Shown here piece after piece: positions 1,975 through 44,800 of a stretch of DNA of 64,000 nucleotides. The stretch lies in assembly GCF_044324785.1 (NCBI RefSeq), contig NZ_CP172129.1; one strand, 5' to 3'. The first letter of the stretch is position 1. Every line of letters begins with the position of its first letter. The notes under the pieces are model-generated. The model saw only the letters and a program-made list of their open reading frames with translations, had not been told where the DNA came from and did not search any database. The translations under genes were made by a program, and so were the position numbers. Origin of the DNA: Escherichia coli (GTDB taxonomy: Bacteria; Pseudomonadota; Gammaproteobacteria; Enterobacterales; Enterobacteriaceae).

Positions 1975-4152
1975 TCAGAATGATGCGGTAACTCCGGCAT
2001 AGTAAGCCCGGCCTGGCTCGTTATAGGTATTCGCCCCTTCAGAAGATCGGAAGATCTGTTTATTGAGGATATTACTGACGCCGACATTAAGACGCAGATT
2101 TTTATTAATATCGTAATTGAAGTTCGTCCCCACCAGTGAATAAGCGCCCAGCTCTTTACCTGACAGACCGCCAGTATCTTCACTGCGGGTTTCCGCATGA
2201 GTACGCGGTTTTTGTCTGCCATATAACGTCCAGTTGACGCTGGCAGAAAACGCCTGGGTGATGGTCCAGTTAAGCGAGTTATTGATAGTATATTTCGGGA
2301 TGACCGACAGAGGATTACCGGTGTCTTTTTGCTCCGAAGTGATCATCCATGTGGCATTGGTATTCCAGTTCAGACGATCTTTCACCAGTGGGAAAGACAT
2401 ACTGGCTTCGATACCGTCCACCAGAGCTTTCCCGCCATTCTGCCACTTGAGGATATATGCGCCTGAAGCGGTTTGCCCGATAACGTTATCCCCGGCCACG
2501 ATCTTATTCTGGTAATCATTGCGGAAGTAGGTCACACTTGCGTGGTAATCTTCCCAGGTGAACTCCAGCCCAATTTCTTTATTGACGCTGATTTCCGGAT
2601 CGAGATCTTTATTACCGATCAGGTAGCACCCGCCTGATGTAATATCTTTTGGACAGCCATTGCCTTTCGAGTAGAGCAGATAGCCTTCACTGGATTGATA
2701 CAGGTTTGGGGCTTTAAAGGTTCGGGCAACCCCTGCTTTGACTTTGAAATAATCGCCCAATTCCTGCGAAAGATTCAGACTGGGGCTGAAGTTCCCGCCG
2801 GAGTCGCTGAGATAATCAAAGCGCAGGCCGGGAATGATATTCGTGCCAGGAACCGGCTCAATGTTATCTTCAATATACAGCGCACTGATTTGAGAATGAT
2901 TTTTACTGCTGCGATCCGCAGCAGAGCCAGAAATACCGCTGATATCACTGTCATTCACCGTCAGGCTGGTAGAGGAAGGATCATCGAGCTTATCGCGGTT
3001 CCACTCTGCACCAACGGTCAGCGTTTGATCAACCATCACATTCAAAGGAATATTAAGCTCGCCGCTGGTTCGCCAGGAACTCAGGCGATTGGTCGTAAAC
3101 TTTTCACCCGCTAAAATACGCCCTTCACCACCGCCGGATAATCCTTCATTCATGCGGGTATTATTGGTTTTCTCGTAATAAACACCAAAGCGACTTTGTC
3201 CCCAGTCCCAGATACCATTATGCGTAATGCCATAATTCTGTCGGTACAGGCGGTTCGTCTCTTTGCCGGATTTTGCCAGGCTTTCGGTAACTGCACTGGA
3301 AGAACTGTTTTGCGTATCGCCCGCATAGATATTCCCCTGGCGGCTATATCCGGCTTCGAAATCGAGAATCTGCTGCGGATTTAATTTCCACGAGACAACG
3401 CCGTTAATATCTTTGTTACGTACCCCTTCATGCCCGGCTGCGTTTTTCGTACCGACCGGAGAATTAATATCCCAACTGTCAGCATCCGTTTTATTCAGGT
3501 TACCATACAAACGCGTGGTAAGAGCATTACCAGCCAGAGGCCCACTAAGGCTGAAATTGGCGCGACGCGTAGCGCCCTCATCGCTACTTTCCGGCTGATT
3601 GGTGTATAACGACAGCGAACCGTGCCAGTCGTTGGTGGGACGTTTGGTAATGATGTTCACCACCCCCCCGGCTGCCCCCGAACCGTAGCGCGCCGCCGCA
3701 GGGCCGCGGATCACTTCAATACGCTCAACCTGTTCCGGTGGCACCCAGTTGGTGTCACCGCGGGTATCACGCTCTCCACGCCAGCTATAACGCACGGAGT
3801 TACGTGACGTCACCGGTACACCATCAATTAAAATTAAGGTGTTTTCCGGCCCCATACCACGAATATCGATCTGGCGGTTGTTACCGCGTGTGCCCGAGGC
3901 GCTATTGCCGGTAAGATTGACGCCAGGCATTTTACGAATAATATCTGAAAGGTCGTTTACCGGAGGGGTCTTTTTAATATCCTCGCTGGTAATAACCGAC
4001 ACGCCCGGCTGCTGTTTTAATACCTGCTCAGCGGTGGCTTCCACCACCAGAGTCTCGTCATTATCATCGTCGGAGGATTTGGCTACTGATACCTGGCTAT
4101 TCAACCCAACCAGGAGCACAGTTAGCGACCAGAGGATTTTGTTAATTCTCAT
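1975..4152 (-). CDS. iroN: TonB-dependent outer-membrane salmochelin receptor IroN (725 aa)
   Basis: 725-aa product with signal peptide, TonB box-like ETLVVEA and C-terminal aromatic residue typical of TonB-dependent receptors. Confidence 0.9.
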   Translation of the reverse strand: MRINKILWSLTVLLVGLNSQVSVAKSSDDDNDETLVVEATAEQVLKQQPGVSVITSEDIKKTPPVNDLSDIIRKMPGVNLTGNSASGTRGNNRQIDIRGMGPENTLILIDGVPVTSRNSVRYSWRGERDTRGDTNWVPPEQVERIEVIRGPAAARYGSGAAGGVVNIITKRPTNDWHGSLSLYTNQPESSDEGATRRANFSLSGPLAGNALTTRLYGNLNKTDADSWDINSPVGTKNAAGHEGVRNKDINGVVSWKLNPQQILDFEAGYSRQGNIYAGDTQNSSSSAVTESLAKSGKETNRLYRQNYGITHNGIWDWGQSRFGVYYEKTNNTRMNEGLSGGGEGRILAGEKFTTNRLSSWRTSGELNIPLNVMVDQTLTVGAEWNRDKLDDPSSTSLTVNDSDISGISGSAADRSSKNHSQISALYIEDNIEPVPGTNIIPGLRFDYLSDSGGNFSPSLNLSQELGDYFKVKAGVARTFKAPNLYQSSEGYLLYSKGNGCPKDITSGGCYLIGNKDLDPEISVNKEIGLEFTWEDYHASVTYFRNDYQNKIVAGDNVIGQTASGAYILKWQNGGKALVDGIEASMSFPLVKDRLNWNTNATWMITSEQKDTGNPLSVIPKYTINNSLNWTITQAFSASVNWTLYGRQKPRTHAETRSEDTGGLSGKELGAYSLVGTNFNYDINKNLRLNVGVSNILNKQIFRSSEGANTYNEPGRAYYAGVTASF

Positions 4153-4267: not shown

Positions 4268-5006
4268 TAGCAAAAAAAAAAGCAATCCCTCACAAGATAA
4301 ATATATCGATTTTTCATAAATATCAAATTGATATATAACATATGTTTTTTATTTCATTGCACTTGTCGATCATCGGGAATTTTGTCACAATTTCTCACGG
4401 ATAGTGTTCACATTGTTTCTGACCTGCATTTCAGGCGCGGGCGCTGCTTATGTATATAAGGGCCTGTGGTCGACGAATCAGCATAATCAGATCTTCCTGC
4501 GAGCAATTTCTTTCAGCGTATCAGGCAGCACTATCGGATTATCTACGTGCGTTTTTGATTCACATTGTGTGTGAAACTTCATACATCATGATTCGCTTTC
4601 CCTACTCAGTTCTGATGATTGTTTTTTATTCTATTAACACGGAGTTAAGATTCTACCCTCGGTGTCCTCATTATTAATGAGGAATGCTACCTATCTAAAA
4701 ACTGACCGAAACTTTGGGGCATCCCTGGAGGTTTCCAAGGAGAAAAAGGTGACAGTGATAGTGCCACATTGTGAGGAAATTCCTGAGAAACTCCTGGTTC
4801 ACACACATAATTCAGGAGTTTGCCATAGATAGTAACCAATTGTTTTATATTTTAAGACCATTAAATACGCGGCTACGATAGCGCTTTATATAATCATAAA
4901 CTGTAGAGATAAAATATCTGCTTCTCTGATAACACTAATTGAGTGTCTTAAACTAAGTAATTTCATTTTTCCCCCTTTAAAAGCAATATATGTGCAATAG
5001 TTGAAG

Positions 5007-38701: not shown

Positions 38702-40443
38702 TGAATCACAAAGACTGGGATTTGGTCAACCGCCGCCTGGTGGCAAAAATGTTGTCTGAGCTGGAGTATGAGCAGGTTTTCCACGCGGAATCTCAGGGCG
38801 ATGACCGCTACTGCATTAACCTGCCGGGAGCACAATGGCGCTTCATCGCTGAACGTGGTATCTGGGGCTGGCTCTGGATTGATGCTCAAACTCTGCGCTG
38901 CGCGGACGAGCCAGTACTGGCTCAGACGCTGCTGATGCAGCTAAAGCAGGTACTGTCAATGAGCGATGCAACCGTTGCTGAGCATATGCAGGATTTGTAT
39001 GCCACGCTGCTGGGCGACCTGCAACTACTGAAAGCCCGTCGCGGGCTGAGCGCCAGTGACCTGATTAATCTTAATGCCGACCGCCTGCAATGCCTGCTGA
39101 GCGGTCATCCTAAATTCGTTTTTAATAAAGGTCGCCGTGGCTGGGGTAAAGAGGCGCTGGAACGATATGCGCCAGAGTATGCCAACACCTTCAGACTGCA
39201 CTGGCTGGCGGTAAAACGTGAACATATGATCTGGCGCTGTGATAACGAGATGGATATTCATCAGTTGTTGACGGCCGCAATGGATCCGCAGGAGTTTGCC
39301 CGCTTCAGTCAGGTCTGGCAGGAAAACGGACTGGATCATAACTGGCTGCCGCTGCCGGTACATCCGTGGCAGTGGCAGCAAAAAATCGCTACCGACTTCA
39401 TCGCTGATTTTGCCGAAGGCAGGATGGTGTCTCTCGGCGAGTTTGGCGACCAGTGGCTCGCCCAGCAGTCGCTGCGTACCCTGACCAACGCCAGTCGCCG
39501 GGGCGGGCTGGATATCAAGCTGCCGCTGACCATCTACAACACCTCATGCTACCGGGGGATCCCTGGCAGATACATCGCTGCCGGACCACTGGCTTCACGC
39601 TGGCTACAACAGGTTTTTGCGACCGACGCCACCCTAGTGCAAAGCGGCGCAGTGATACTTGGTGAACCGGCTGCAGGCTATGTCTCCCATGAAGGCTATG
39701 CCGCGCTTGCCTGGGCTCCCTATCGCTACCAGGAAATGCTTGGTGTTATCTGGCGGGAGAATCCGTGCCGCTGGCTGAAACCGGATGAAAGTCCGGTTCT
39801 GATGGCAACACTGATGGAGTGCGACGAAAACAATCAGCCGCTGGCAGGCGCATATATAGACCGCTCCGGGCTGGACGCTGAAACCTGGCTTACGCAACTG
39901 TTCCGGGTGGTCGTGGTTCCTCTGTATCACCTGCTTTGCCGCTACGGTGTCGCGCTTATTGCACATGGACAAAATATAACTCTCGCCATGAAAGAGGGGG
40001 TTCCACAGCGTGTTCTGCTGAAAGACTTCCAGGGCGATATGCGACTGGTGAAAGAAGAGTTCCCCGAAATGGACTCTTTGCCTCAGGAGGTTCGTGATGT
40101 TACATCCCGCCTGAGTGCGGACTACTTAATCCATGATTTGCAGACGGGTCACTTCGTGACAGTACTGCGTTTTATTTCGCCACTGATGGTTCGTCTTGGC
40201 GTACCTGAAAGGCGATTTTATCAACTGCTGGCAGCAGTGTTGAGTGATTACATGAAAAAACATCCACAAATGTCAGAGCGTTTTGCGCTTTTCTCACTTT
40301 TCAGGCCACAAATCATTCGCGTGGTGCTGAACCCGGTAAAACTGACCTGGCCTGATCTGGATGGCGGCAGCCGCATGCTGCCGAATTACCTTGAGGATCT
40401 GCAAAATCCGCTGTGGCTGGTAACTCAGGAATATGAATCATGA
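38701..40443 (+). CDS. iucC: Aerobactin synthetase IucC (580 aa)
   Basis: IucA/IucC family; overlapping start/stop with neighbours. Confidence 0.9.
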   Translation: MNHKDWDLVNRRLVAKMLSELEYEQVFHAESQGDDRYCINLPGAQWRFIAERGIWGWLWIDAQTLRCADEPVLAQTLLMQLKQVLSMSDATVAEHMQDLYATLLGDLQLLKARRGLSASDLINLNADRLQCLLSGHPKFVFNKGRRGWGKEALERYAPEYANTFRLHWLAVKREHMIWRCDNEMDIHQLLTAAMDPQEFARFSQVWQENGLDHNWLPLPVHPWQWQQKIATDFIADFAEGRMVSLGEFGDQWLAQQSLRTLTNASRRGGLDIKLPLTIYNTSCYRGIPGRYIAAGPLASRWLQQVFATDATLVQSGAVILGEPAAGYVSHEGYAALAWAPYRYQEMLGVIWRENPCRWLKPDESPVLMATLMECDENNQPLAGAYIDRSGLDAETWLTQLFRVVVVPLYHLLCRYGVALIAHGQNITLAMKEGVPQRVLLKDFQGDMRLVKEEFPEMDSLPQEVRDVTSRLSADYLIHDLQTGHFVTVLRFISPLMVRLGVPERRFYQLLAAVLSDYMKKHPQMSERFALFSLFRPQIIRVVLNPVKLTWPDLDGGSRMLPNYLEDLQNPLWLVTQEYES

Positions 40444-41717
40444 AAAAAAGTGTCGATTTTATTGGTGTAGGGACAGGGCCATTTAATCTCAGCATTGCTG
40501 CGTTGTCACATCAGATCGAAGAACTGGACTGTCTCTTCTTTGATGAACATCCTCATTTTTCCTGGCATCCGGGTATGCTGGTACCGGATTGTCATATGCA
40601 GACCGTCTTTCTGAAAGATCTGGTCAGTGCTGTTGCACCTACAAATCCCTACAGTTTTGTTAACTATCTGGTGAAGCACAAAAAGTTCTATCGCTTCCTT
40701 ACAAGCAGACTACGTACAGTATCCCGTGAAGAGTTTTCTGACTACCTCCGCTGGGCTGCTGAAGATATGAATAACCTGTATTTCAGTCATACCGTTGAAA
40801 ACATTGATTTCGATAAAAAACGTCGATTGTTTCTGGTGCAAACCAGCCAGGGAGAATATTTTGCCCGCAATATCTGCCTTGGTACAGGAAAACAACCTTA
40901 TTTACCACCCTGTGTGAAGCATATGACACAATCCTGTTTCCATGCCAGTGAAATGAATCTTCGTCGGCCGGACCTTAGTGGAAAACGGATAACCGTGGTT
41001 GGTGGAGGACAGAGTGGTGCAGACCTGTTCCTTAATGCATTACGCGGGGAATGGGGAGAAGCGGCGGAAATAAACTGGGTCTCCCGGCGTAATAATTTTA
41101 ACGCACTGGATGAGGCTGCTTTTGCTGATGAGTATTTTACACCTGAATATATTTCAGGCTTCTCCGGACTGGAGGAAGATATTCGCCATCAGTTACTGGA
41201 TGAGCAGAAAATGACATCGGATGGCATCACTGCCGATTCTTTACTGACCATTTATCGTGAGTTGTACCACCGTTTTGAAGTTCTGAGAAAACCAAGAAAT
41301 ATCCGTCTGCTACCCAGCCGCTCGGTAACAACTCTGGAAAGTAGTGGTCCTGGCTGGAAGTTGCTGATGGAGCATCATCTGGATCAGGGCAGGGAGAGCC
41401 TGGAAAGTGATGTGGTGATTTTCGCCACAGGTTACCGTTCTGCGTTGCCACAAATACTTCCCTCACTGATGCCCCTGATCACCATGCACGATAAGAACAC
41501 CTTTAAAGTGCGTGATGACTTCACTCTGGAATGGAGTGGCCCGAAAGAGAACAACATCTTCGTGGTCAACGCCAGTATGCAAACCCATGGCATCGCCGAA
41601 CCCCAGCTCAGCCTGATGGCATGGAGATCTGCACGTATTCTTAATCGCGTAATGGGACGTGATTTATTCGATCTCAGTATGCCGCCCGCCCTGATTCAGT
41701 GGCGCAGCGGCACCTAG
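40440..41717 (+). CDS. iucD: L-lysine N6-monooxygenase IucD (425 aa)
   Basis: FAD-binding N-terminus IGVGTGPFNLSIAA; operon position. Confidence 0.9.
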   Translation: MKKSVDFIGVGTGPFNLSIAALSHQIEELDCLFFDEHPHFSWHPGMLVPDCHMQTVFLKDLVSAVAPTNPYSFVNYLVKHKKFYRFLTSRLRTVSREEFSDYLRWAAEDMNNLYFSHTVENIDFDKKRRLFLVQTSQGEYFARNICLGTGKQPYLPPCVKHMTQSCFHASEMNLRRPDLSGKRITVVGGGQSGADLFLNALRGEWGEAAEINWVSRRNNFNALDEAAFADEYFTPEYISGFSGLEEDIRHQLLDEQKMTSDGITADSLLTIYRELYHRFEVLRKPRNIRLLPSRSVTTLESSGPGWKLLMEHHLDQGRESLESDVVIFATGYRSALPQILPSLMPLITMHDKNTFKVRDDFTLEWSGPKENNIFVVNASMQTHGIAEPQLSLMAWRSARILNRVMGRDLFDLSMPPALIQWRSGT

Positions 41718-41798: not shown

Positions 41799-44000
41799 AT
41801 GATGATAAGCAAAAAGTATACGCTTTGGGCTCTCAACCCACTGCTTCTTACCATGATGGCGCCAGCAGTCGCTCAACAAACCGATGATGAAACGTTCGTG
41901 GTGTCTGCCAACCGCAGCAATCGCACCGTAGCGGAGATGGCGCAAACCACCTGGGTTATCGAAAACGCCGAACTGGAACAGCAGATTCAGGGCGGCAAAG
42001 AGCTTAAAGACGCACTGGCTCAGCTGATCCCTGGCCTTGACGTCAGCAGCCGGAGCCGCACCAACTACGGTATGAATGTGCGTGGCCGCCCGCTGGTCGT
42101 GCTGGTTGACGGCGTGCGTCTCAACTCTTCACGTACCGACAGCCGACAACTGGACTCTATAGATCCTTTTAATATCGACCATATTGAAGTGATCTCCGGT
42201 GCGACGTCCCTGTACGGCGGCGGCAGTACCGGTGGCCTGATCAACATCGTGACCAAAAAAGGCCAGCCGGAAACCATGATGGAGTTTGAGGCTGGCACCA
42301 AAAGTGGCTTTAGCAGCAGTAAAGATCACGATGAACGCATTGCCGGAGCTGTCTCCGGCGGAAATGAGCATATCTCCGGACGTCTTTCCGTGGCATATCA
42401 GAAATTTGGCGGCTGGTTTGACGGTAACGGCGATGCCACCTTGCTTGATAACACCCAGACCGGCCTGCAGTACTCCGATCGGCTGGACATCATGGGAACT
42501 GGTACGCTGAACATCGATGAATCCCGGCAGCTTCAGTTGATCACACAGTACTATAAAAGCCAGGGCGACGACGATTACGGGCTTAATCTCGGGAAAGGCT
42601 TCTCTGCCATCAGAGGGACCAGCACGCCATTCGTCAGTAACGGGCTGAATTCCGACCGTATTCCCGGCACTGAGCGGCATTTGATCAGCCTGCAGTACTC
42701 TGACAGCGCTTTTCTGGGACAGGAGCTGGTCGGTCAGGTTTACTACCGCGATGAGTCGTTGCGATTCTACCCGTTCCCGACGGTAAATGCGAACAAACAG
42801 GTGACGGCTTTCTCTTCGTCACAGCAGGACACCGACCAGTACGGCATGAAACTGACTCTGAACAGCAAACCGATGGACGGCTGGCAAATCACCTGGGGGC
42901 TGGATGCTGATCATGAGCGCTTTACCTCCAACCAGATGTTCTTCGACCTGGCTCAGGCAAGCGCTTCCGGAGGGCTGAACAACAAGAAGATTTACACCAC
43001 CGGGCGCTATCCGTCGTATGACATCACCAACCTGGCGGCCTTCCTGCAATCAGGCTATGACATCAATAATCTCTTTACCCTCAACGGTGGCGTACGCTAT
43101 CAGTACACTGAAAACAAGATTGATGATTTCATCGGCTACGCGCAGCAACGGCAGATTGCCGCCGGGAAGGCTACATCCGCCGACGCCATTCCTGGCGGCT
43201 CAGTCGATTACGACAACTTCCTGTTCAACGCCGGTCTGCTGATGCACATCACCGAACGCCAGCAGGCATGGCTCAACTTCTCCCAGGGCGTGGAGCTGCC
43301 GGACCCGGGTAAATACTATGGTCGCGGCATCTATGGTGCTGCAGTGAACGGCCATCTTCCTCTAACAAAGAGTGTGAACGTCAGCGACAGCAAGCTGGAA
43401 GGCGTGAAAGTCGATTCTTATGAGCTGGGCTGGCGCTTTACTGGCAATAATCTGCGTACCCAAATCGCGGCCTACTATTCGATTTCTGATAAGAGCGTGG
43501 TGGCGAATAAAGATCTGACCATCAGCGTGGTGGACGACAAACGCCGTATTTACGGCGTGGAAGGTGCGGTGGACTACCTGATTCCTGATACTGACTGGAG
43601 TACCGGAGTGAACTTCAACGTGCTGAAAACTGAGTCGAAAGTGAACGGTACCTGGCAGAAATACGATGTGAAGACAGCAAGCCCATCAAAAGCGACAGCC
43701 TACATTGGCTGGGCACCGGACCCGTGGAGTCTGCGCGTGCAGAGCACCACCTCCTTTGACGTGAGCGACGCGCAGGGCTACAAGGTCGATGGCTATACCA
43801 CCGCGGATCTGCTCGGCAGTTATCAGCTTCCGGTGGGTACACTCAGCTTCAGCATTGAAAACCTCTTCGACCGTGACTACACCACTGTCTGGGGGCAGCG
43901 TGCACCACTGTACTACAGCCCGGGTTACGGCCCAGCGTCACTGTACGACTACAAAGGCAGGGGCCGAACCTTTGGTCTGAACTACTCTGTGCTGTTCTGA
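41799..44000 (+). CDS. iutA: TonB-dependent ferric aerobactin receptor IutA (733 aa)
   Basis: Signal peptide, TonB box-like ETFVVSA, C-terminal F. Confidence 0.9.
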   Translation: MMISKKYTLWALNPLLLTMMAPAVAQQTDDETFVVSANRSNRTVAEMAQTTWVIENAELEQQIQGGKELKDALAQLIPGLDVSSRSRTNYGMNVRGRPLVVLVDGVRLNSSRTDSRQLDSIDPFNIDHIEVISGATSLYGGGSTGGLINIVTKKGQPETMMEFEAGTKSGFSSSKDHDERIAGAVSGGNEHISGRLSVAYQKFGGWFDGNGDATLLDNTQTGLQYSDRLDIMGTGTLNIDESRQLQLITQYYKSQGDDDYGLNLGKGFSAIRGTSTPFVSNGLNSDRIPGTERHLISLQYSDSAFLGQELVGQVYYRDESLRFYPFPTVNANKQVTAFSSSQQDTDQYGMKLTLNSKPMDGWQITWGLDADHERFTSNQMFFDLAQASASGGLNNKKIYTTGRYPSYDITNLAAFLQSGYDINNLFTLNGGVRYQYTENKIDDFIGYAQQRQIAAGKATSADAIPGGSVDYDNFLFNAGLLMHITERQQAWLNFSQGVELPDPGKYYGRGIYGAAVNGHLPLTKSVNVSDSKLEGVKVDSYELGWRFTGNNLRTQIAAYYSISDKSVVANKDLTISVVDDKRRIYGVEGAVDYLIPDTDWSTGVNFNVLKTESKVNGTWQKYDVKTASPSKATAYIGWAPDPWSLRVQSTTSFDVSDAQGYKVDGYTTADLLGSYQLPVGTLSFSIENLFDRDYTTVWGQRAPLYYSPGYGPASLYDYKGRGRTFGLNYSVLF

Positions 44001-44072
44001 CCGGTATTCCTTTACAACAAAGGTACGCTGATATCAACATGGCCGCTGACAGCCAAGTTGATATCATATAAT

Positions 44073-44133
44073 ACACGACATAATCTGTAGTCAGGGAGGA
44101 TAGACTCTTTACTGACTACAGATTATGTCGTGT
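44073..44133. repeat. Perfect 22-bp inverted repeat with 17-nt spacer downstream of iutA
   Basis: acacgacataatctgtagtcag ... ctgactacagattatgtcgtgt. Confidence 0.8.
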
Positions 44134-44524
44134 TCCGTGCTCATTTCCTCAAAAAATACAAGAAAAGAATTAGTATTCTAACAAAAAGTGAAATAAATTG
44201 TATCAAACTCCCTCTTTTAATCCTGTTGAGTAAATCAGCTTTTGCAATAGGATTGAAAGAGTGTAAGTGGAATCTCTTCCGGATACTCGTTACCACCGTG
44301 GCTAGAATATCTACGGCTGCGGGCCAGTAATAGATTAAGTGATAACAGCTGTCTGGAAATGTAGGGGCGTATCCACTAATCATAATCATTGTGAGATAAA
44401 TATTACGGGGCATTTTATAATGAATAAAATATACTCTCTAAAATATTGTCATATTACCAATACCATGAAGGTGATGCTGCCAACTTACTGATTTAGTGTA
44501 TGATGGTGTTTTTGAGGTGCTCCA

Positions 44525-44800
44525 GTGGCTTCTGTTTCTATCAGCTGTCCCTCCTGTTCAGCTACTGACGGGGTGGTGCGTAACGGCAAAAGCACCGCCG
44601 GACATCAGCGCTATCTCTGCTCTCACTGCCGTAAAACATGGCAACTGCAGTTCACTTACACCGCTTCTCAACCCGGTACGCACCAGAAAATCATTGATAT
44701 GGCCATGAATGGCGTTGGATGCCGGGCAACTGCCCGCATTATGGGCGTTGGCCTCAACACGATTTTACGTCACTTAAAAAACTCAGGCCGCAGTCGGTAA
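44525..44800 (+). CDS. insA: IS1 InsA
   Basis: [43 protein letters not shown]... Confidence 0.9.

Follow-up and report, generated by a model that had tools for sequence, protein, structure and literature searches.

A perfect palindrome downstream of iutA on ColV-type plasmids is probably an orphan inverted pair of RepFIB-type iterons

A perfect inverted repeat follows the aerobactin receptor gene iutA in a 64,000-nt stretch of Escherichia coli DNA, which is referred to here as the window. The palindrome is very probably homologous to the inverted iterons E and F that adjoin the repA gene of RepFIB replicons. We consider it probable that it represents an orphan inverted pair of RepFIB-type iterons, i.e., a putative RepA(FIB) site, which would be either a fossil or an auxiliary control site. 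Binding of RepA at the present day, with any measurable effect, is a more tentative prediction from the sequence.

Results

The palindrome and its surroundings

The features of the region are as follows.

41799–44000, plus strand: iutA (ferric aerobactin receptor), last gene of iucABCD-iutA; an ORF of 733 aa, so named in 100%-identical public records
44029–44066, plus strand: hairpin I2, with 15-nt arms and an 8-nt loop, separate from the iteron pair
44073–44094, plus strand: left arm of the palindrome, ACACGACATAATCTGTAGTCAG, its outer 7 nt (ACACGAC) lying beyond an iteron-like core, ATAATCTGTAGTCAG, at 44080–44094
44095–44111, plus strand: spacer of the palindrome, 17 nt, asymmetric, GGAGGATAGACTCTTTA
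44112–44133, minus strand: right arm of the palindrome, CTGACTACAGATTATGTCGTGT, with an iteron-like core at 44112–44126 that reads ATAATCTGTAGTCAG on the minus strand; counterpart of inverted iteron F
44134–44280, no strand assigned: AT-rich 147-bp segment common to Klebsiella virulence plasmids, without further iteron-like sites
44281–44384, plus strand: right-end remnant of an IS2-like (IS3-family) element, comprising the last 27 transposase codons (GYSLPPWLEYLRLRASNRLSDNSCLEM, then stop) and the terminal repeat
44421–44469, plus strand: start of a SPATE-type autotransporter gene, the first 16 codons (MNKIYSLKYCHITNTM), cut by an IS1 end at 44470

In full, the palindrome reads ACACGAC-ATAATCTGTAGTCAG-GGAGGATAGACTCTTTA-CTGACTACAGATTAT-GTCGTGT. 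The repeat search returned arms of 22 nt each, 100% complementary and 17 nt apart, and this recount bears out the sequence-only reading, which had described a perfect 22-bp inverted repeat with a 17-nt gap downstream of iutA. The length is exactly 22 because the flanking T residues at 44072 and 44134 do not pair, and the first base lies 72 nt past the iutA stop codon. A search of the 64-kb window for the arm sequence, allowing up to 3 mismatches, found only these two arms, with 0 expected from 100 shuffles. The palindrome is real and far from a chance occurrence. Folded in isolation, the hairpin reaches -41 kcal/mol as RNA (z = -9.7) and -24.5 kcal/mol as DNA (z = -10.3).

The combination of a GC-rich stem-loop and a U/T tract that characterizes intrinsic terminators is not found here, in agreement with the earlier statement that this is no standard intrinsic terminator. 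There is no T-run 3' of the right arm, where the sequence is TCCGTGCTCATTTCC; the stem is followed by TCCGTGCTC, or by ATTATATGAT on the opposite strand, with a T-run on neither, and a terminator scan of positions 43800–44600 gave 0 terminator-like sites. In an Rfam scan (E ≤ 10) the palindrome matched no family at the gathering score and yielded generic hairpin noise only, the best match being a plant miRNA precursor (23.4 bits versus a 110-bit threshold).

The window is a 100% match to ColV-type plasmids, e.g., pAPEC-O1-ColBM and pS88. The gene order of the collinear annotated plasmid is IS1 - int - RepFIB repA - IS1 - sitABCD - crcB - MFS - iucABCD - iutA - palindrome - IS1 - sopAB - leading region - tra, which places RepFIB ~17 kb from the palindrome on the same molecule. 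The 64-kb window itself contains no RepFIB, no rep gene and no further iterons. The 27 transposase codons of the IS2-like remnant were recognized at 67% identity, and homology between ColV and Klebsiella plasmids stops at 44393, ~10 nt past that remnant. The idea that the palindrome abuts a truncated IS was rejected: the remnant is limited to 44281–44384, with the segment 44134–44280 lying between. In the annotation of identical records an IS1 transposase is directly downstream of the SPATE fragment, and in chromosomal islands sat occupies the matching place downstream of iutA. This suggests that the linkage of iutA to a SPATE gene is ancestral and common to the plasmid and chromosomal contexts.

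Homology to the downstream iterons of RepFIB

The results from a blastn comparison of the 74-nt region with 5,426 complete E. coli genomes revealed identical copies beside iutA in 887 of them (~16%). A further ~2,100 E. coli records, nearly all of them plasmid, matched over the inner 49 nt at 82–88%. The best of the matches downstream of a FIB repA spans arm, spacer and arm (49 nt, 87.8%; E value 2e-7 against 28 Gb). Many FIB matches fall at record position 979–1027, and PLSDB gave the same pattern. Position 979 is the first base past a 978-bp gene annotated as 'RepB family plasmid replication initiator protein', with a tyrosine recombinase gene further downstream; this combination of initiator and recombinase genes is the RepFIB replicon, whose RepA matches Pfam Rep3_N. 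The sequence-only reading had proposed a search for the arm elsewhere in the genome; there is no other copy in the window, and beyond the iutA-linked copies the search led to these RepFIB relatives only.

The native site reads TGA-ACATAAACTGTAGTCAG-ATAAGAGAGACTCTTTA-CTGACTACAGTTTAT, after which the 15-mer recurs in direct copies. The resident FIB replicon of a ColV plasmid has an identical layout after repA, and its origin iterons upstream of repA have the common core ATAA(A/G)CTGT.... In every RepFIB replicon examined, the repA stop codon is directly followed by E and F, the first members of the 'downstream' control block. The spacer GGAGGATAGACTCTTTA is identical to the F-type FIB E/F spacer ATAAGAGAGACTCTTTA at 13 of 17 positions by our count. 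Because both arms and the asymmetric spacer are homologous, convergence on a mere palindrome is excluded. The asymmetry of the spacer also fixes the orientation, such that iutA stands where the native replicon has repA.

In the FIB replicon, rep is flanked by Rep-binding iterons, with B–D' at the origin and E–K downstream, the latter being 'associated with replication control' (PMC11983097). The EFGHIJ block alone suffices to displace a FIB replicon, Rep-mediated handcuffing has been proposed, and the primer for the 'downstream iterons' starts at ACATAAACTGTAGTCAG (PMC11983097). The letters E and F for the first two downstream repeats are assigned here from that paper together with position, and not from the original RepFIB figures. 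Among the three suggestions of the sequence-only reading, a protein-binding palindrome comes closest, the arms being RepFIB-type iterons; the protein, RepA of the Rep3 family, had not been named there. No link of iterons to the aerobactin locus and no account of the palindrome were found in the literature covered; the dyad symmetry may have been mentioned earlier, in the pColV-K30 sequence papers of the 1980s.

To describe the natural iterons, nine distinct 15-mers were extracted from five FIB replicons, and a consensus and weight matrix were built from them. The arm core ATAATCTGTAGTCAG agrees with the consensus ATAAACTGTAGTCAG at 14 of 15 positions and is also 1 mismatch away from iteron E, while natural FIB iterons differ from one another at up to 5 positions. 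Its matrix score is 20.9 bits, as compared with 21.0–24.4 bits for natural iterons, and is no test of core position 5, which the extraction pattern had fixed as a purine. At that position both arms carry T, whereas every natural iteron read has A or G. The cores start 32 bp apart in the palindrome, exactly as in native E/F (+2 and +34 past the repA stop in five FIB replicons).

The palindrome thus resembles native RepFIB E/F (P307, F, pO157; control block E–K) in the 15-nt core bar one base, in the inversion, in the 32-bp spacing and in having a homologous 17-nt spacer. Sequence and arrangement are those of an iteron pair; an array flanking a cognate rep gene is not present. In the native replicon repA adjoins the pair and iterons G–K follow, whereas the palindrome has neither. 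The native pair is perfect for 15–17 bp, as compared with 22 bp here, and lies right after repA, whereas the palindrome follows the last gene of a virulence operon, ~17 kb away from the replicon. Since no rep gene adjoins it, we use the term 'orphan'.

The next best matrix site of the 64-kb window, at 4896–4910 (ATAAACTGTAGAGAT; 15.7 bits), agrees with the RepFIB iteron consensus at each of its first 11 bases. Its surroundings are AT-rich, with iroN on one side and a DAHP synthase gene on the other, and it has no inverted partner. We rejected it as a real iteron; it is a lone partial match, probably due to chance.

Copies on Klebsiella plasmids and in chromosomal islands

In Klebsiella hypervirulence plasmids (~600 records) the common arrangement is iutA - I2 - palindrome - 147 bp - IS remnant. 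The Klebsiella right arm contains an uncompensated 6-nt tandem duplication (AGATTA-AGATTA) along with a G>A change (NZ_CP037743.1, positions 4046–4071), leaving a perfect palindrome only in the inner 14-nt cores and a hairpin of -30.7 kcal/mol. The duplication looks like slippage within the palindrome, and could mark hvKp-type as opposed to ColV-type aerobactin loci. Every plasmid lineage seen, Klebsiella included, has kept both 15-nt cores intact. Between ColV and Klebsiella there are four differences in ~400 nt, two of which are inside the palindrome. In E. fergusonii I2 is present and the palindrome absent, and in a Klebsiella iuc lineage with 90% amino-acid identity an IS cuts just past the stop codon.

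In four chromosomal iutA-sat variants, local alignment at the syntenic site covered the whole 61-mer, with scores of 14–16 versus 8.8 ± 1.4 (0–9 of 1000 shuffles as good). The same 61-mer gave no alignment with E. fergusonii (432 of 1000 shuffles as good). Chromosomal iutA-sat islands therefore hold a decayed copy in the same position, and the element is older than the split between plasmid and chromosome. An indication from megablast and MAFFT that plasmid/chromosome homology ends exactly at the palindrome was withdrawn, the sensitive local alignment running through it. Alignment of the ColV plasmid (window 43401–44072) with a chromosomal iutA-sat island (2452–3130) gives 99.7% identity for the final 600 nt of iutA and 67% from the iutA stop codon onward. 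This drop indicates a recombination breakpoint at the iutA stop. In the chromosome of E. coli O104:H4 (~1310–1345) a 16-nt tandem duplication (TGTTTACAGCCAGTAT twice) covers the end of the I2 right arm and the next 6 nt; it is absent from the other chromosomal alleles.

With FIB E/F serving as outgroup, 2 changes are unique to the plasmid copy and 16–18 to the chromosomal one (p = 4e-4 to 1e-3), counts that are approximate, the alignment to the decayed copy being short and gapped. Two neutral fossils should be about equally distant from the outgroup, and hence either constraint or conversion by a co-resident FIB replicon has acted on the plasmid copy. Whichever of the two applies, this copy is linked to RepFIB; gene conversion can explain the asymmetry as well as selection.

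These comparisons bear on the main rival to a site with a present role, namely that the pair is an inert fossil left behind by an old rearrangement that involved a RepFIB replicon. Its perfection would then derive from recent origin, from hairpin-templated correction of a quasi-palindrome, or from conversion by resident FIB iterons. We consider this unlikely, even if several observations are in its favor. The element persists in Klebsiella virulence plasmids, in which no E. coli-type FIB E/F pair was detected (2 places per record), and there it carries the uncompensated duplication and the G>A change; the palindrome has taken half of the ColV-Klebsiella differences. It is surrounded by a mosaic of IS fragments, decay of the chromosomal copy has gone unchecked, and the ~1,400 plasmid copies vary too little to show selection. 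Against complete inertness stand the intact cores of all plasmid lineages. Moreover, a flank identity of 67% leads to an estimate, assuming an even split, of ~7 changes in the 44 arm positions on the ColV branch, whereas no asymmetry is observed. The relative-rate result of 2 versus 18 likewise needs constraint or conversion.

Hairpin I2 and a role at the RNA level

Hairpin I2 is kept in the ColV, Klebsiella hypervirulence, E. fergusonii and chromosomal lineages, three diverged alleles in all, and in three of the 17 pairs both partners have changed (A-U to U-A or the reverse). Pairing is preserved in 90% of cells as compared with 21–47% when the partners are slid, a contrast based on three distinct sequences only and equalled by 28 of 500 shuffles. 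The predicted folding energy is -19 kcal/mol in the window and -29 kcal/mol in the chromosomal allele. I2 is thus a better candidate than the palindrome for the 3'-end element of the iuc-iutA transcript. The sequence-only reading had offered the palindrome as an RNA stability element for that transcript; such a role fits I2 better, the palindrome being lineage-specific and broken without compensation in ~600 Klebsiella plasmids.

As an RNA element, the palindrome would, if transcribed, form a hairpin that blocks 3' exonucleases or aids termination. It would certainly fold if transcription passes I2, it has a very stable hairpin on the sense strand shortly past the iutA stop, and the ColV lineage is without a canonical terminator, while the Cronobacter and Pantoea iutA homologs have one (a GC hairpin plus a T-run). 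Those terminators resemble the palindrome in being stable hairpins shortly past the stop of the last gene of an operon. They differ from it in that the palindrome has no U-tract, combines an AT-rich 22-bp stem with a 17-nt loop and is not conserved across iutA lineages. We regard the RNA reading as improbable. It is the upstream I2 that is conserved across lineages with compensatory changes, whereas the palindrome is absent in E. fergusonii, does not fold as a hairpin in the islands of the chromosome and has been weakened by uncompensated changes in Klebsiella. The missing U-tract and the generic Rfam noise point the same way, and the sequence of the palindrome, beyond its symmetry, matches a DNA-binding site.

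Native RepFIB E/F (positions 978–1030; another at 4437–4495, minus strand) also folds as an RNA hairpin, of -24 to -25.5 kcal/mol (z ~ -7.6), right after the rep stop. [quoted passage not shown] The native hairpin could bear on the egfp-insertion result of that study.

Distribution

A scan of one genome per species (~100,000 species representatives) for the pattern CTGTAGTCAG-N5-30-CTGACTACAG gave 20 matches. Two of these were in two Escherichia species, and both were the RepFIB pair downstream of repA. The other 18 came from unrelated phyla, in line with the ~14 matches expected by chance (a rough hand estimate). A metagenome scan for the T-variant pair returned 11 contigs, all of them the iutA locus, and no replicon whose own iterons carry the T variant occurred among the species representatives or metagenomes. 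The palindrome version was found only beside iutA, in ColV plasmids and, with the 6-nt duplication, in Klebsiella virulence plasmids. This single locus type, with one locus per replicon, extends across 72,556 plasmids, the 5,426 E. coli genomes and the metagenome scan, and the only other relatives are the RepFIB E/F pairs at their fixed position after repA. All E. coli records sampled in the match tables carry both loci (4 places, which we read as 2 palindromic loci).

One metagenome contig, OHKX01006816.1 (1–55), begins inside the palindrome, and its 17-nt spacer runs in the reverse-complement direction when compared with the right flank. The most probable cause is that the assembly folded back at the inverted repeat; a real inversion of the spacer is less likely.

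The distribution also speaks to the suggestion that the arms are the paired ends of a small non-autonomous element, i.e., the terminal inverted repeats of a MITE, or that the palindrome belongs to a dispersed palindromic repeat family. Perfect terminal-looking 22-bp inverted repeats around a short core, in a region rich in IS fragments, would be in keeping with such an origin. It can nevertheless hardly be entertained: the window holds one copy, the searches of plasmids, E. coli genomes, species representatives and metagenomes disclosed no other context, the flanks (ATATAAT and TCCGTGC) show no target-site duplication, and the chromosomal allele is a decayed copy and not an empty site. The least credible reading is a terminator or regulatory site for a 90-aa ORF on the opposite strand (44413–44141), with 8 nt between its end and the right arm and with a promoter-like site ahead of it (44440–44412, minus strand). 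This ORF has no Pfam match and is unannotated in identical PGAP records. It lies antisense to the IS2-like remnant and crosses the point (44393) at which ColV and Klebsiella homology ends, so that its start is not conserved.

Discussion

For an orphan pair of RepFIB-type iterons we propose the following course. The pair would descend from an old junction, or from later gene conversion, between the iutA 3' flank and a RepFIB replicon. On ColV plasmids, with a working RepFIB ~17 kb away, both cores would still be able to bind the Rep3-family initiator RepA. With RepA bound, the pair might work on the DNA as the rest of the downstream iterons do, either by titrating the initiator or by handcuffing with iterons of the origin, in cis or in trans. 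The predicted outcome is a slight damping of FIB replication and a small addition to FIB incompatibility. The effect on replication may be negligible, as 2 sites would be set against roughly a dozen native ones. Persistence of the element in Klebsiella plasmids, where no E. coli-type FIB pair was found and where the duplication is uncompensated, argues against iteron function and indicates that such a function is not required.

A stronger version, in which the iteron pair is a selected cis link between the virulence operon and plasmid replication, strikes us as very improbable. According to this version the pair, located in the 3' flank of the Fur-regulated iuc-iutA operon, would be occupied by RepA(FIB) and coupled to the FIB origin as long as the operon is silent. 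In iron-starved cells, read-through transcription would clear the site and so render copy number, or the FIB incompatibility that the aerobactin region exerts, iron-responsive. The retention of the cores on plasmids and their decay on chromosomes (2 versus 18 changes) would then reflect selection only where RepA is present.

An orphan iteron pair has partial counterparts in known systems. The repE operator of mini-F and the pPS10 repA operator are inverted, iteron-like half-iteron operators bound by dimeric initiator. The spacers of these operators are short or absent, and the sites overlap with the rep promoter, whereas the palindrome has a 17-nt spacer, full-length cores and no apparent promoter role. 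In incA of P1, control iterons outside the origin bind the initiator and restrain replication by pairing with the origin iterons. The iterons of incC of mini-F RepFIA, likewise outside the origin, bind the initiator and restrain replication in the same manner. The handcuffing model has been cited for FIA (PMC11983097). The incC and incA clusters lie beside the rep gene and comprise 5–9 sites, in contrast to an isolated pair far from its replicon for which the effect is predicted only.

RepFIB is the hallmark replicon of ColV-type and Klebsiella hypervirulence plasmids, both of which are of clinical importance. A near-consensus iteron pair at the end of the aerobactin operon would record how these modules were assembled, pointing to an old iutA-FIB association that predates the split between plasmids and chromosomal islands. 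As a candidate extra control or incompatibility site, the palindrome is relevant to plasmid-curing designs based on FIB iterons (PMC11983097) and to replicon typing. It also illustrates that for perfect palindromes near the ends of plasmid operons a role in RNA is not a given. Even if the pair is a fossil, it is a useful annotation for ~16% of complete E. coli genomes (887 of 5,426) and ~600 Klebsiella plasmids. To plasmid specialists, an orphan pair will come as a modest surprise.

A further observation concerns iucD (window 40440–41717), which PGAP labels a 'frameshifted' pseudogene in three independent matching records, one of them chromosomal. The ORF in the window is intact and encodes 425 aa; the label may stem from the reference length used in annotation, in which case iucD has no real defect.
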